Shown here: positions 32,315 through 36,905 of the stretch, one piece after another
How the letters are laid out: every line of letters starts with the position of its first letter
How positions within the stretch are numbered: the first letter of the stretch is position 1
Assembly: GCA_947177015.1 (NCBI GenBank)
Contig: CAMWSV010000001.1
Coordinates: 1-37,463 of the forward strand
Length of the DNA: 37,463 nucleotides
Direction of reading: 5' to 3'
Origin: an uncultured Porphyromonadaceae bacterium
GTDB lineage: Bacteria > Bacteroidota > Bacteroidia > Bacteroidales > Muribaculaceae
Translations under genes and position numbers: made by a program
Notes under the pieces: generated by a model
Seen by the model: the letters and a program-made list of their open reading frames with translations, nothing else
Told to the model about the DNA's origin: nothing
Databases searched by the model: none

Positions 32315-34660
32315 TTATTTGCCGTAGTCGTTGAAGGTAGAGCCATTGTCGTTGAGATTGAGTACACGCTCACGTTCCTTTTTCTTAAACGGACTGCCGA
32401 AATCGAGATTATAGGAGATAGTCAGTTGGATTAGATCATGGGCATTCCGCATCTCGCGGGTTTTCCTGACTGTCTGTTCGGGTGAATGTTGCCACTCAAT
32501 GTAGTGCCAGCCCTTCTTATCAAACATATAGGACCATCCGACCTGAAAATCCCAGTGGGAGTTGGGGGTGAATCTCACTGACAATTGATCATACCACGGC
32601 CCTCTCCTTGCGACATAGCCATTGCAGGAGTTGAGAGGAAACTGTCGTGCGTAGTCAATCTGCCATTTTCGATATTGCCAAGTCAGTCTGATAAAGCCTC
32701 CAAGTGAATTGGTATGGGTTTTCCATCCGGCATCGTCCTTGAAATCATAATGACGATACTCTAAAAACGCATGAAACGAAAACATGTTGAGGATATTATA
32801 AAAAGATCCCTGCAGGACACATCCGGCCTCATTGGAATAGCGTCCATTTACGGGCATGGAAAGATAAGCCTTTAGGGCGTCATCATATCTGACAACTGTG
32901 ACGGCAGGATTAATACTCCGCGTGTAGGTGGCAGTTGTGTTGACAATGATATTCCTGTTGTTACTGTAACTTACCACAAGACGCTCCTGAATACTATGCA
33001 GAGGCTTAAGATTCTCATTGCCGTTATTGTAAAGATAAGAGGAGGTCTGCACCAGATGATCATCGAGTTGACCGAGTGACAGGGGGGAGGAGCCGTAAGT
33101 CAGGTTATGGTTGAGTGTCCACGATGGATTTATCACCCACTGGAGATTCAACTGCGAGAGATTGTTGAGGTATGTCATCGACCGGTTGTCGATTGCGAAA
33201 TGCTGTATGTTGAGACCGCTCTTCAGATACATCGTGACGCGGTTGGCCCACGTAGCGCGGTACTCCGCATAAATCTGATTATGGTTCTCCTTCATGTGGC
33301 TTTCCGTAGTGGTGAGCGGGTATCTGTTGGTATTGGTGGAGAGCGTCAGTAGATAGCATAGCCCCAATTGCGAGCGGTCGGCAAAGAAGTGTTTGTAATC
33401 CAGTCCTGCAAGCAGGGAATAACGCTCGGATTTAATGTCATTTCCATATTCGAGGAATCCCGACGGGCGGTCGTAACTTATCTCCGACTCATAGGGGGTG
33501 CTGGAGGCTGTGCCCACTACATTCACGTCGACGGCATTCCCGGGATTCAGTTCCTTCGACAGATAGAAATTCAGAGTATGCGTCGCCGCGTTGTTGTGGG
33601 TTCGGCTGGAGCCATAGTAACTATCCGGATTGGCGGAATACATTTCCTCATAGTAGGTATATGATTTACGCAATGCATTGGAATTGTTAAAACAATATGA
33701 GGCCGACAGTAAAAATGATGAGGAGGGCAGATAGTTGTATTGCAGAGTTGCGTTGGCGATCTTGTAATTAAATGGTGAATGAGATTCTTCATTGATATTC
33801 ACCGGAAGGGAAGGTGACGTATAATCGGTAGTGAGAGTATCGTATGTCTTCTCGTTATTGGCGTAATTGAAATTGCCCCTCAGTGTCCATGAGGAACTGC
33901 CCTGATGAAACCGCAGACCGGCTCCTCCCCAGATTAAGGTACCTATGAAGTCATTCGACTCTGTAACATTAAGGCTGCCTCCATTATCTCTCTTCTTCAA
34001 CCTTACATTTATCAGGAAGTTCCCTTCCCCATAGATTGCCGGTACGTTAGGAGAATATTCTACATTGAGTACGTCAGTAGCCTTAAGCGACTGCAACTCC
34101 TCCTGCGAGGAGGGGTGGCCGTCGATAAGGATAACCGGATTCCCAAGGCTGCTCTCGAGCGTACGATTCGTAGGATTATACATCAGAGTCGGTATCCCAA
34201 GTCGTCCGATGAGTTCGATGGCGTAAGTGGAGGCTTCGATGGAAGATTGCCTCGGGGTATAGAGGATCTTGCCGTCGGAGGCCACTACCGGCGACCCTTC
34301 CACCACCACTTCATCAAGTGTACTCACCTCCTGAAGAATACATTCCCCGACATCAATGTTATCCCCACCCGAAGCAAATTCCTTCTCATAGGGTTCGTAG
34401 CCGAATGATTCAATTCTTAGAATTAAGGTACTTAAAGAGTCCGGGACTTGCAAGTGAAATTCGCCATTATCATCAGATAACGTAGAATCTATAATAATGG
34501 TAGCCTCATCGCTCCTTTTCAACACACTACATTCTGCATTGGAGATTTTGCGGCTGTAATTCCCTTCGGAAATAACAGTACCTCTAATTTCTATCCCAAA
34601 ACTATGCAAAGGTAGGATAAGTAACAAAGCGATAGTAGCAATTATTTTAATAAATTTCAT
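32315..34660 (-). CDS. TonB-dependent-receptor-like outer-membrane beta-barrel protein with N-terminal carboxypeptidase-regulatory-like domain
   Basis: Signal peptide; IRGTVI..SDDNGEFHL..SFGYEP domain; LDEVVVEG linker; plug-like VILIDG..DVLNVEY..PAIYG; aromatic amphipathic strands ending LTISYNLDFG plus a short basic tail. Confidence 0.85.
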   Translation of the reverse strand: MKFIKIIATIALLLILPLHSFGIEIRGTVISEGNYSRKISNAECSVLKRSDEATIIIDSTLSDDNGEFHLQVPDSLSTLILRIESFGYEPYEKEFASGGDNIDVGECILQEVSTLDEVVVEGSPVVASDGKILYTPRQSSIEASTYAIELIGRLGIPTLMYNPTNRTLESSLGNPVILIDGHPSSQEELQSLKATDVLNVEYSPNVPAIYGEGNFLINVRLKKRDNGGSLNVTESNDFIGTLIWGGAGLRFHQGSSSWTLRGNFNYANNEKTYDTLTTDYTSPSLPVNINEESHSPFNYKIANATLQYNYLPSSSFLLSASYCFNNSNALRKSYTYYEEMYSANPDSYYGSSRTHNNAATHTLNFYLSKELNPGNAVDVNVVGTASSTPYESEISYDRPSGFLEYGNDIKSERYSLLAGLDYKHFFADRSQLGLCYLLTLSTNTNRYPLTTTESHMKENHNQIYAEYRATWANRVTMYLKSGLNIQHFAIDNRSMTYLNNLSQLNLQWVINPSWTLNHNLTYGSSPLSLGQLDDHLVQTSSYLYNNGNENLKPLHSIQERLVVSYSNNRNIIVNTTATYTRSINPAVTVVRYDDALKAYLSMPVNGRYSNEAGCVLQGSFYNILNMFSFHAFLEYRHYDFKDDAGWKTHTNSLGGFIRLTWQYRKWQIDYARQFPLNSCNGYVARRGPWYDQLSVRFTPNSHWDFQVGWSYMFDKKGWHYIEWQHSPEQTVRKTREMRNAHDLIQLTISYNLDFGSPFKKKERERVLNLNDNGSTFNDYGK

Positions 34661-34667
34661 CGAATCA

Positions 34668-34707
34668 AAGAAATTAGAATATCAGGATACCCGAAAGTAT
34701 CCTGATA
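34668..34707 (-). terminator. Hairpin between precursor and barrel genes (partial terminator or mRNA stabiliser)
   Basis: Perfect 11-bp stem TATCAGGATAC (34680-34690)/GTATCCTGATA (34697-34707); on minus it is followed by TTCTAATTTCTTT. Confidence 0.65.
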
Positions 34708-34777: not shown

Positions 34778-35026
34778 TTAGCAAATAATACCTGAATGAC
34801 AAGTACCACCGGCAAAACAAGTACCACCAGAACATTCGTTACCGGTGCAATTATTCCCGGTACAATGATTGCCCGTACAAGAGTTACCGGTACAAGAGTT
34901 ACCGGTACAAGAGTCACCCGTGACGAGACCGTTGATGTCAACGTTCTCACCGGGAGCGATTCCTCCCAGTACTTCCAGGCGTTCCAGTTCAGAAAGTTCG
35001 CCCTGTGAAAAAATTTCTTTTTTCAT
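34778..35026 (-). CDS. Double-glycine RiPP precursor peptide with Cys-rich pentapeptide-repeat core
   Basis: Leader MKKEIFSQGELSELERLEVLGG fits L(-12)S..E(-8)..V(-4)xGG; 60-aa core with 9 Cys; located between rSAM/SPASM and barrel/PCAT genes. Confidence 0.92.
   Translation of the reverse strand: MKKEIFSQGELSELERLEVLGGIAPGENVDINGLVTGDSCTGNSCTGNSCTGNHCTGNNCTGNECSGGTCFAGGTCHSGIIC
34832..34921 (-). repeat. 15-bp-period coding repeat, six TG(N/D)xC units
   Basis: GTACAAGAGTTACCG is exact at 34875-34889 and 34890-34904, near-exact at 34905-34919; the other units are diverged. Confidence 0.9.
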
Positions 35027-35238
35027 GATTTAGAATAATTATAAAGTTATAAGTAGTTGATTATTGCTTATACTAATTCTGTGTCAAAAATTTCTGAATC
35101 CTTAAGACTGATTCTCTTTTTCGAATAGGCAAAGTTTTTACCTTATCTCAATTGAAGATAATTTTAAGATAAAGAAAGATTTGTCACGGGATAAATTAAA
35201 ATTCATAGCCACGAATCAGTAATAAACAATCTATTAAT

Positions 35239-36519
35239 TTAATGATATCTTTGATCAATGAATTTTACGACTGCATTCTCAAATTCTGAATCATCACTAT
35301 CCATCTTGCATCCATTGGGATTTGTCATCCAGTTACGCGGACACTGTCCATAGCAGTTAGGTAAGTATATGCAATCCCTGCATCTGTCATTATCAAATGT
35401 TCTTACAGTATATTGCTCAAAGAATTGCATATCTCCCTCAATTTTACCATCAGATCCTATTTTGCATTTTGCATCACTCTGATAGAGATCATCATTGGCT
35501 GTACATTTCACTATATCTCCCTGATAATTTATTGTGGAATGTAAACGCCGGGATGCATAACATGGTGCACCGTAATTTAGTGGATTCCAGTACTCAACCC
35601 TGAATCCGGCATCCTCAAAGTTTTTAAGAATTTGATATAATTCCGAGGTATAGGATTTATCAACATTCTCCTGCCACACCTTACGCGGCAATATAACAAT
35701 CCGAGATCGGATATCGGACGGAATCAGATTCATCACTTCCTCTACGATACCTACTTTTAGGTTCTCATGCGTATAATTGATTCGCAGGATGACTTCAATA
35801 TTAGGATTATCCAACAGAATATCTCTAATATTGGTAAGCGCGCGATTAAAAGATGAATCTAAATTCTTCATGAATTTTACCTTATCATGGTTTTCCTTAT
35901 TACCGTCTAAGGTGATCTGAAATATTTTGAAATTCAATTCTCTCATCTTCGCGTGCTTTTCCGGAGTCAGGAAGTAGGCGTTTGTGGTGGCTCCCATTGA
36001 GCAGGGAATACCGGCTTCTTTACATGCCTTTACGGCATATTCTCCGATCGGAACTATCACTTTATCGAAATACATAAGTGGTTCGCCGCCAAACCAGTCA
36101 ATATGCAGCGATTCTATCTCTTCCTCTTTTATGAGGTAATCGATATAGTGGCATACACGCTCTATAGTCTCCTCATTCATCATTGAGGGAATATGATCCT
36201 GTATGCAATACCAGCATGCATAGTTGCAATTGAGTGTCGGAATTATGATTAAGAAGGCATTCATATCATTTTTCGCCCGGTCAGCCCTATCGAGAATAAT
36301 CTGATATTCATCTACATCATCCTCAATGATAAAACCGCCCTCTACAAGTTTCGAATAGACAGCAGGGAATGTCTCCTGCCATGCCTCGAAATCTTCCAGA
36401 TTATCGCGAAGTTTGTTGCCGGTACCATTCGACAGACGGAAATACATATGGGTAATTCCATTATACCAATAAGAATAACCATCTTTTTCGATGATATGGT
36501 TATACTTGCTAAGTTTCAT
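35239..36519 (-). CDS. Radical SAM/SPASM-domain peptide maturase
   Basis: CNYACWYC (CxxxCxxC), WFGGEP, TTNA, QITLDG; SPASM Cys set PCYA..GDIVKC..CRDCIYLPNCYGQC..GC; N-terminal ~75 aa resemble an RRE/PqqD-like domain. Confidence 0.95.
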   Translation of the reverse strand: MKLSKYNHIIEKDGYSYWYNGITHMYFRLSNGTGNKLRDNLEDFEAWQETFPAVYSKLVEGGFIIEDDVDEYQIILDRADRAKNDMNAFLIIIPTLNCNYACWYCIQDHIPSMMNEETIERVCHYIDYLIKEEEIESLHIDWFGGEPLMYFDKVIVPIGEYAVKACKEAGIPCSMGATTNAYFLTPEKHAKMRELNFKIFQITLDGNKENHDKVKFMKNLDSSFNRALTNIRDILLDNPNIEVILRINYTHENLKVGIVEEVMNLIPSDIRSRIVILPRKVWQENVDKSYTSELYQILKNFEDAGFRVEYWNPLNYGAPCYASRRLHSTINYQGDIVKCTANDDLYQSDAKCKIGSDGKIEGDMQFFEQYTVRTFDNDRCRDCIYLPNCYGQCPRNWMTNPNGCKMDSDDSEFENAVVKFIDQRYH

Positions 36520-36530
36520 AAGTAATTTAG

Positions 36531-36905
36531 TTAATATATTATCTTTGCTTCTCCGGTCCAGGATTCCCCCTGCAGGGAGATGACATGCATGTCGGAGGTC
36601 TGAGGCAATGTCAGTGTACAGTTGAGCCGGGGCGAGGTAGCTTCGAGTCCTCCCGTAATATCATACACGTACACGTACCCTTCGAGATCTTCGGGCGCAG
36701 CTACGGAGAGCACCCCGGTGGCATTGTCAAAAGAGGTTTCGATCGGAAGATGCAACGGAGCATTACCGAAACCACCTGATCCCACACTTCCTGGTAAAGG
36801 TCTTTTCTTAAACCCGATGACTACAAGAGTGTCGTCCGCTTGCACTTCACTTACTCCTGTTGTAAAAGCAAGCATACATAAGATGAATTTCAGAATTGTC
36901 TTCAT
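36531..36905 (-). CDS. Small secreted beta-rich protein, DUF3244-like
   Basis: Sec signal peptide ending VQA, Gly/Pro linker (GSGGFGNAPLHLPI), then beta-strand pattern with VYVYDITG; 11 bp upstream of the rSAM gene. Family assignment is by resemblance only. Confidence 0.65.
   Translation of the reverse strand: MKTILKFILCMLAFTTGVSEVQADDTLVVIGFKKRPLPGSVGSGGFGNAPLHLPIETSFDNATGVLSVAAPEDLEGYVYVYDITGGLEATSPRLNCTLTLPQTSDMHVISLQGESWTGEAKIIY

Follow-up and report, generated by a model that had tools for sequence, protein, structure and literature searches.

A nine-cysteine GxxC ladder beside a radical SAM/SPASM enzyme in an uncultured Muribaculaceae bacterium: a candidate for serial cysteine-to-glycine thioethers

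Introduction

The described systems closest to the locus studied here are radical SAM peptides in which Cys is joined to a nearby residue; they are cited from the accessible parts of the published texts. In the NxxC ranthipeptide of streptococci (NxxcA/NxxcB), encoded in a Gram-positive quorum-sensing locus, the Cys is joined to the residue three positions upstream (Cys23-Asn20 in NxxcA), giving one ring at the Asn beta-carbon (PMC8326336, PMC9389541). Streptosactin (GggA/GggB), a type 2 sactipeptide, has two un-nested four-residue rings in series with acceptors located downstream, at i+3: GggB makes the links Cys25-Ser28 and Cys31-Gly34, the latter being a four-residue Cys-Gly ring (PMC8172795, PMC9389541). 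Gly also serves as sactionine acceptor in StsA/StsB and BlaA/BlaB, where three or two rings form a nested hairpin and the enzymes are MftC-like (PMC10288494). In the CrpA/CrpC system of Methanococcus voltae (TIGR04463), the enzyme has a fused RRE and serially modifies Cys motifs of a 28.8 kDa substrate with 17-residue repeats, in which Cys precedes the acceptor and the links are ranthionines (PMC13692751). The CefA/CefB pair (NF038108/NF038107), known here from the HMM library alone, has Cys at every fifth residue beside a radical SAM/SPASM gene. Bacteroidales contain very many radical SAM peptide clusters with unknown products; clusters with a radical SAM gene, a PCAT and a GG-leader precursor (TIGR04148/04149/04150) are common in the order, often without a membrane fusion protein (PMC10352776).

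Here we describe a cluster of the same plan in an uncultured Porphyromonadaceae bacterium (GTDB family Muribaculaceae). The window is the whole stretch of 37,463 nucleotides that was analysed, i.e., contig CAMWSV010000001.1 of assembly GCA_947177015.1. Its precursor peptide, P0001, has a ladder of nine Cys, the first seven of them at every fifth residue as in CefA. A sequence-only reading had seen in this ladder a possible new NxC or CxxN topology. In our analysis, the system would resemble NxxC in register and streptosactin in ring size and serial layout, and it lacks the defining features or falls below the cut-offs of NxxC, PapB, CefA/CefB, TIGR04463 and TIGR04148-50. In contrast to NxxcA, P0001 is predicted to carry up to nine rings, has Gly at -3 of its Cys (so that the alpha-carbon would be linked), and comes with a GG leader, a PCAT and an outer-membrane barrel. 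In contrast to streptosactin, the predicted acceptors lie upstream. The alternation of donor Cys and acceptor that defines type 2 sactipeptides would be given in P0001 by GxxC, nine times. The accessible text of the Bacteroidales survey (PMC10352776) mentions neither this enzyme clade nor a GxxC/QxxC register; the literature that we searched, with few subscription papers, holds no description of the clade, of CefA/CefB or of this register, and the PMC10288494 spreadsheet (3,421 precursors) gave no match for the leader and core motifs tried.

Results and Discussion

A five-gene cluster at the end of the contig

Five minus-strand genes lie at the contig end (Table 1): they encode a 124-aa protein, the radical SAM/SPASM enzyme P0002, the precursor P0001, an outer-membrane barrel and a C39-peptidase ABC transporter. 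Glycogen-metabolism genes come next, on the other strand. The precursor gene starts 213 bp downstream of the P0002 gene. The earlier assignment of P0001 as a radical-SAM RiPP precursor is borne out. Three of the features that mark a radical SAM/SPASM thioether RiPP are present: a maturase, a predicted RRE fold, and next to the maturase a Cys-rich precursor whose leader is conserved and whose core varies. The N-terminal domain of the barrel matches PF13715 below the cut-off (E 2e-5) and its look-alikes in the Atlas are of the PF14905 type, at 0.99-1.00; we infer a role in export or uptake. No membrane fusion protein gene is found in the cluster, and four HlyD-type genes over cut-off are found on other contigs of the genome. 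P0001 has no match to TIGR04149 at E<=1, and the cluster lacks a pseudo-rSAM or second rSAM-like ORF.

Table 1. Features of the cluster in the window
Feature	Coordinates	Strand	Basis
Protein of 124 aa, hydrophobic N-terminus, no family match	36531..36905	-	
Radical SAM/SPASM maturase P0002, 426 aa, predicted N-terminal RRE	35239..36519	-	
Promoter-like site, 34 bp upstream of precursor start	35060..35087	-	11/12 sigma-70 consensus matches
RiPP precursor gene P0001, 82 aa	34778..35026	-	ORF translation, synonymous repeat variation, second-run agreement
Double-glycine leader, 22 residues, predicted cut after Gly22 by C39 peptidase	34961..35026	-	
Ladder of nine GxxC units in residues 36-82; six units read T-G-[ND]-x-C	34781..34921	-	
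Hairpin of 12 pairs with T-rich tail, between precursor and barrel gene	34680..34707	-	Consensus match only
Outer-membrane beta-barrel, 781 aa, carboxypeptidase-regulatory-like N-terminal domain	32315..34660	-	
Peptidase-containing ABC transporter (C39 + ABC membrane + ATPase), 780 aa	29933..32275	-	

At E<=1e-80, clade enzymes are present in 22 of the 220 genomes that represent the genus; of 401 genomes sampled from the family, 20 encode one. Genus searches around two genomes (G323 and G294) gave no new loci. Among 31 related metagenome loci with flanks of at most 3 kb, a barrel homolog is present in 25 and a transporter homolog in 20. The adjacent transporter is absent from L271 (G116), L272 (G123), L270 (G109) and L274 (G131), the first of which also lacks the barrel and consists of enzyme and precursor only. 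Export genes may therefore be shared in trans.

The same genome has a third, more distant cluster (L268, contig C56, 2861-11100) with two C39 ABC transporters, a radical SAM enzyme (34% identical) and a PF14905 barrel; its Asn/Cys peptide of 65 aa carries NGGDC-type repeats.

The ladder is real and has Gly at -3 of every Cys

The translation agrees with what had been read from the letters: an 82-aa GG-leader ORF with a TG(N/D)xC ladder, nine Cys spaced by 5,5,5,5,5,5,6,6 and a C-terminal Cys, with Asn/Asp at -2 of six Cys and Asn at +3 of five. Two regularities come on top of these, namely Gly at -3 of all nine Cys and Thr/Ser at -4 of eight (Table 2). The leader is recognised as such by its near identity to that of P0003, a peptide with a different core, and by the same leader type in precursors of the clade.

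Table 2. Residues around the nine Cys of P0001
Cys	40	45	50	55	60	65	70	76	82
-4	T	T	T	T	T	T	S	A	S
-3	G	G	G	G	G	G	G	G	G
-2	D	N	N	N	N	N	G	G	I
+3	N	N	N	N	N	G	G	G	none
+4	S	S	H	N	E	T	G	I	

At the DNA level the ladder lies on a 15-bp tandem repeat. Across units one to six, codons for Thr, Gly and Cys vary only synonymously (pairwise, these units have 28 synonymous and 17 non-synonymous codon differences), and the ladder therefore behaves as coding sequence. A contig from a second run of the same study matches 34794-35047 without any difference, which argues against an assembly slip; another run, which contains the entire stretch and may be the source of the window, is excluded from this comparison. 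Among the sequencing runs listed for the locus, none is an RNA run. Translated in six frames (4.07 million residues), the genome matches (C..[ND].){3}C nowhere but in the ladder and has one other match to five Cys spaced by 5; the ladder is also the only stop-to-stop segment under 160 aa with at least five GxxC. The P0001 ladder is real and not a product of chance. The hairpin downstream of the gene would favour the precursor transcript over the downstream genes (4 terminator-like sites were found vs 1.8 in shuffles), and the promoter-like site is a weak lead (15 sigma-70-like sites vs 9.0 +/- 3.0 in shuffles).

With a period of five, position -2 of one Cys is +3 of the previous one and -3 is +2; from the repeat by itself, the acceptor cannot be told. 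The first six units are tandem duplicates in which Thr at -4, Gly at -3 and Asn at -2 are equally conserved, which leaves three Cys to discriminate. These last three break the tie, since Asn vanishes and the spacing becomes 6, while Gly stays at -3. We propose that each Cys is linked to the Gly three residues upstream by a sulfur-to-alpha-carbon thioether, giving up to nine un-nested four-residue rings; to judge by the sequences, this proposal stands about evenly between right and wrong. Serial small macrocycles, suggested earlier, remain the likeliest product, with thioether links.

The strict five-residue period and the Gly in every unit could also reflect a peptide with little or no modification, i.e., a disulfide-braced mini-solenoid with ten-residue coils or a binder of metal by free thiols. 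A ten-residue disulfide-braced coil with two Gly in its turns has been modelled for a midge antifreeze protein (accessible text of PMC13080227), and radical SAM enzymes often modify some Cys only, as with the single thioether in the six-Cys Tte1186a. However, nine Cys cannot all pair, and the gene just upstream encodes a dedicated maturase whose catalytic and SPASM Cys are intact. In relatives, the Cys spacing ranges from 4 to 14 while the residue class at -3 is kept (see below), which fits local rings rather than a regular solenoid. We consider this reading rather improbable; single-sequence AlphaFold2 on the precursor (mean pLDDT 45.9) gives no information on a solenoid fold.

P0002 has the cysteine pattern of thioether-forming enzymes

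The CX3CX2C motif of P0002 lies at 98/102/105, with 45.8 bits for PF04055 (cut-off 29.5). Its three catalytic Cys are conserved in an alignment of 48 rows and its seven SPASM Cys (320, 339, 380, 383, 389, 393 and 404) are invariant in 48/48 aligned relatives. P0002 deviates at 10 of 131 conserved columns, within the relatives' range of 0-18, and thus gives no sign of decay. The structure model (pLDDT 93.5) finds the thioether former CteB (5why/5wgg) as best fold match, over the full length, and starts with three strands followed by helices, the fold of an RRE; the N-terminal domain is predicted on this ground to be a RiPP recognition element. A joint prediction of P0002 with P0001 scored 0.59 vs 0.43 for a control and gives no verdict.

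P0002 reaches no NCBIfam cut-off. Its best match is the CrpC family TIGR04463 (164 vs 525 bits), followed by CefB (NF038107; 125.9 vs 600 bits), and P0001 likewise stays under the CefA cut-off (17.2 vs 30 bits). PapB (NF047865) scores 92.6 bits vs 340, and P0001 has no freyrasin-type CX3D motif, to judge by its +4 residues. GggB (NF050038) is absent from the 25 best NCBIfam matches of P0002, and TIGR04148 is not among the best 25 of 52 matches (all of at least 32 bits; cut-off 300). CrpC shares with P0002 the spacing of the SPASM Cys: 320-339 and 380/383/389/393 are spaced as 333-352 and 390/393/399/403 in CrpC, with the last Cys of P0002 closer than that of CrpC. In CrpC, three Cys hold AuxI (Cys333/352/403), where its authors infer an open site for the substrate thiol, and the others are 390/393/399/422 (accessible text of PMC13692751). 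This Cys pattern is that of thioether formers, so P0002 likely forms thioethers too.

By alignment to CteB, six active-site-proximal residues of P0002 are I106, F143, T178, T203, T340 and A341. The corresponding residues are F,F,T,S,H,Q in CteB and Y,T,I,S,K,L in the sactisynthase StsB, and two non-hairpin sactisynthases, GggB and QmpB, are likewise CteB-like in profile (accessible text of PMC10288494). In its residues, P0002 looks closer to CteB than to StsB, which counts against Cys-to-Gly links. Since the six positions are identical in P0006, an enzyme close to P0002, they offer no explanation of a switch to Gly.

A five-enzyme subclade that includes P0002 shares changes at the otherwise conserved positions 88, 148, 220, 326, 327 and 390. 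These are possible specificity determinants, and several lie close to the SPASM hairpin and to strand one of the barrel. The clade motif KCTAC has an extra Cys after the second AuxI ligand in 90 of 119 homologs, and P0002 has KCTAN. As a marker of precursor type this Cys correlates loosely (it is kept in 5/11 ladder loci), and we draw nothing from it.

The CrpC match also bears on the main rival of our proposal, in which Cys1-5 form beta-thioethers with Asn at +3, Cys6-8 form sactionines with Gly at +3 and the C-terminal Cys stays free. It would account for eight Cys and for the odd count, since all eight non-terminal Cys of P0001 have Asn or Gly there. CrpC links Cys to downstream residues, in CAVD, CAGD, CAGM and CPLV (accessible text of PMC13692751), and both GggB links run downstream as well. 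A ladder of CxxD/N with a period of five lies beside a radical SAM gene in another Bacteroidales family (L028, described below) and passes the CefA cut-off. Against this, the TIGR04463 score is far below its cut-off, the L028 enzyme is merely 23% identical to P0002, and the near clade behaves differently at +3, as shown in the next section. We regard downstream links as unlikely.

Related precursors keep an acceptor-type residue three positions upstream of Cys

Precursor candidates were collected beside enzymes at least 38% identical to P0002. Of 58 candidates, 42 remained after removal of cores more than 60% alike, and 41 without P0001, with 260 Cys and enzymes 38-51% identical to P0002. The leader filter missed a few, e.g., L151, which was included later in the ladder-type set. 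Expected counts come from shuffles with Cys kept in place; the relatives are not independent, so z values overstate. Gln occurs at -3 of 94 Cys vs 18.8 expected (z 19.6), whereas the count for Asn at -2 does not depart from background (24 vs 23.5). Asn at +3 is found 34 times vs 24.4 expected. At positions +2 and -5, Asn is enriched about 2.8-fold, owing to the common motif QxxCxNxxxGC. This is the commonest precursor motif of the clade, repeated one to three times (L002, L159, L232 and about 25 other loci); every second Cys in it has Asn at -5 and lacks an acceptor-type residue at -3, which counts against an upstream register.

The cores of 11 loci lack this motif and are of ladder type. Here, N/D/Q/E/H/F/Y/W occupies -3 of 80/98 Cys vs 31.8 expected, a set of residues that was chosen after viewing the data. 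Counting Asn/Asp only, the numbers are 36 vs 15.3 at -3 and 17 vs 14.6 at -2. With six locus-less precursors added, three of them near copies of counted loci, the set is found at -3 in 121/144 Cys. The occupants are N 36, Q 35, D 15, H 13, Y 11, F 10 and G 7; Val, Ile and Leu occur once each and Ala never. The first Cys has an acceptor-type residue at -3 in 10/11 ladder cores, and the rule is kept in 36/53 Cys for which the spacing to the preceding Cys is neither 5 nor 6. One ladder, L299, was fetched after the rule had been set and follows it 9/9 (N,H,N,H,H,N,H,Y,N); three further new precursors fetched alongside are of QxxCxN type. Downstream positions do not show this excess: acceptor-type residues are found at +3 of 18/71 Cys once 6-spaced Cys are dropped, and at +2 of 14/67 once aliasing spacings are dropped, both vs a background of 33%. 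The register points to upstream links in the near clade. It is confined to this clade: for enzymes below 38% identity the rule fails (106/301 vs 97.9 expected; 51 cores).

Conservation of the Asn/Asp and Cys positions in homologous precursors, on which the earlier reading depends, does not hold, given that P0003 lacks the TG[ND]xC ladder, that Asn at -2 stays at background and that +3 does too. The proposal of Asn in a new NxC or CxxN topology lacks support; the conserved position is -3, which is Gly in P0001. Its CxxN half survives as the main rival, with Asn/Gly at +3 of eight Cys; the near clade is at background there, and the topology would not be new, given CrpC and GggB. The NxC half amounts to six three-residue Cys-Asn/Asp beta-thioether rings, with the last three Cys free or in disulfides. 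It can draw on Asn/Asp at -2 in 6/9 P0001 Cys, on 9/16 such Cys vs 3.2 expected across three GxxC peptides (P0001 and two introduced below), and on rings with one intervening residue made by QmpB (accessible text of PMC13361665). Yet both sets of the clade are at background at -2, distant relatives are below it (Asn 20 vs 31), and three Cys are left unexplained, which makes it the least probable reading considered here.

The register of the clade has a difficulty for P0001 itself: Gly is depleted at -3, with 19 vs 34.7 expected in the 41 cores and 6/98 in the ladder loci. Asn at -3 is found in 0/9 P0001 Cys vs 36/144 ladder Cys in relatives. Gly is hence an unusual occupant, and it could be merely a turn residue.

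The nearest relatives of peptide and enzyme

Two peptides with leaders like that of P0001 also have Gly at -3. P0003 has the P0001 leader almost letter for letter and an unrelated core, with Gly at -3 in 3/4 Cys and H,G,S at +3. P0130, with a near leader, has Gly at -3 in 3/3 Cys and also at +3 of both non-terminal Cys, the latter in favour of downstream links. Together they have Gly at -3 in 6/7 Cys vs 1.8 expected, an excess that is partly built in because they were found with P0001 as query; neither is tied to an enzyme. At -2 the two peptides read G,I,N,L,W,N,N. P0123 has a leader similar to that of P0001, and N/Q/G at -3 in 10/10 Cys at spacings of 5-7. L186 and L188 were retrieved through their enzymes rather than by peptide similarity; both alternate G,N,G,N at -3, and the SGIIC that ends P0001 also occurs in L188. 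An Atlas search with the P0001 precursor had a best score of 0.85 and gave leads only.

Thr/Ser at -4 might be the partners instead, giving five-residue rings made either by a radical SAM enzyme at Thr C-gamma, as with CteB, or as lanthionines by an enzyme encoded elsewhere. Thr/Ser are the commonest -4 residues in the ladder relatives (61/144), besides their presence at 8/9 P0001 Cys; CteB is the closest solved structure to P0002; and look-alike (SGNxC)n ladders stand behind a mersacidin-type leader (P0127, P0129). The relatives are, however, mixed at -4 (S,V,V,P,S,L,T,V,T,S in P0123 and T,I,C in P0130) and not at -3. The cluster has no lanthionine synthetase gene (LanB/C, LanM), and PF05147/PF13575 have no match in the genome, which is 84% complete, nor in any control genome. 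This reading is very unlikely.

P0127 and P0129 themselves have long (SGNxC)n ladders, nearly the repeat of P0001, with a mersacidin/lichenicidin-type leader and a twin-arginine-like N-terminus; they likely belong to another enzyme context.

In a quick tree, P0002 groups with P0004-P0007 (98*), then with the enzyme of L143 (99*). The former are its closest enzymes, 56-59% identical, and none is tied to a precursor; no GTDB genome was found with an enzyme more than 51% identical. L143 has the nearest enzyme with a linked precursor, which lies downstream in the same gene order and has QxxC at 8/9 Cys. At +3 its residues are G,D,S,S,K,Q,V,P,K, as mixed as those of P0003, which counts against downstream links.

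A sequencing run with a close relative (enzyme mostly 90-99% alike) keeps the leader and not the core. A low-depth loose end in this run, translated by hand in the frame whose stop falls at the corresponding position, has DGGC, with Asp at -3 and Gly at -2 and +3.

Proposed chemistry

In the upstream Cys-to-Gly reading, the RRE would bind the leader and the thiol of a substrate Cys would bind the open iron of auxiliary cluster I (Cys320/339/393), by the spacing match to CrpC. The 5'-deoxyadenosyl radical would then take a hydrogen from residue i-3, and the C-S bond would form. If the -3 register holds, this bond must be a sactionine, because Gly can be linked through the alpha-carbon alone. 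The maturase would repeat this along the ladder. Cleavage after Gly22 and export of the 60-residue anionic core, which unmodified has a monoisotopic mass of 5754.27 Da, would fall to the C39 ABC transporter.

The -3 residues of the clade all offer a carbonyl-, aryl- or captodatively stabilised radical. Judging from these occupants, the clade may accept any activated carbon at i-3 as the partner of Cys, and the choice between alpha and beta/gamma attack would then lie with the substrate, not the enzyme; alternatively, all links are alpha and the side chains are chosen for recognition. Stated in full, the idea would be that the clade, widespread in gut Bacteroidales, staples Cys to an activated carbon three residues upstream, beta in Asn/Asp/His/Phe/Tyr, gamma in Gln and alpha in Gly, with P0001 as the nine-sactionine extreme that ends at the C-terminus. 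We put this generalisation forward tentatively and as doubtful in its entirety.

If the Cys-to-Gly proposal is true, the chain of rings is longer than in the described peptides that we found, given that sactipeptides usually have one to four rings (accessible text of PMC8326336), and P0002 would be a tolerant tool for making many small rings in one peptide. If the clade-wide rule is true, these enzymes straddle the divide between sactipeptides and ranthipeptides and would include makers of Cys-to-His/Phe/Tyr side-chain thioethers, none of which we found described for radical SAM enzymes in the literature searched. Candidates for such aromatic links are L151/L260 (1495-1767), L299 (1109-1381), L266 and L181, with His, Tyr or Phe at -3 of most Cys. 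The -3 rule is a sharp and cheaply testable cross-link prediction for a common clade. The all-Gly ladder is an ideal substrate to ask whether ranthi-like active sites make sactionines, and whether regiochemistry (alpha vs beta/gamma) follows the substrate or the enzyme.

A possible function of the peptide

The core of P0001 has 4 acidic residues and no Lys or Arg, and cores diverge fast under a conserved leader. Because of these two features, we suggest that the peptide could be a strain-specific signal or a narrow-range antagonist read via its cognate barrel, rather than a membrane-lytic bacteriocin, a role that we hold to be conceivable and somewhat short of probable.

A paralogous cluster in the same genome (L267, contig C134, 531-6019) is headed by a 127-aa homolog of the 124-aa protein and has no precursor. 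Its radical SAM gene is a stump, 65% identical to P0002, that ends after about 89 codons, and it is accompanied by two tandem outer-membrane barrels (50% and 56-58% identical to that of the window) and a transporter. It looks as if production has been lost and the barrels kept. The retention of barrels and transporter beside a truncated enzyme fits a strain-specific ligand read by a barrel.

Similar ladders elsewhere

L028 (2035-4129 of a Prolixibacteraceae contig) has a radical SAM gene with a GG-leader precursor on either side. One of the two is the CxxD/N ladder mentioned above, with 13 Cys and 59.4 bits for CefA vs the cut-off of 30; its enzyme scores 175.5 vs 600 for CefB. L028 keeps Asp/Asn/Glu at +3/-2 and varies at -3, whereas P0001 keeps Gly at -3. 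With this variation and the low identity of the enzymes, the shared five-residue period looks convergent. A scan of GTDB genomes for (CxxN/Dx)4C, covering 2 of 64 parts, gave at least 120 loci, almost all of them 15-bp repeats that lie off frame, in short frames or in unrelated proteins; among the loci listed, L028 was the one small GG-leader ORF beside a radical SAM gene, and the pattern is too loose for an estimate of prevalence. In viral contigs, (GNxC[ST])3GNxC had 7 matches, none adjoining a radical SAM-like ORF. Among more distant enzymes (33-35% identical), those of L193, L196/L197, L218 and L277 are preceded by arrays of three or four precursors with the pattern NxN...CxC...NxN...CxCxC.
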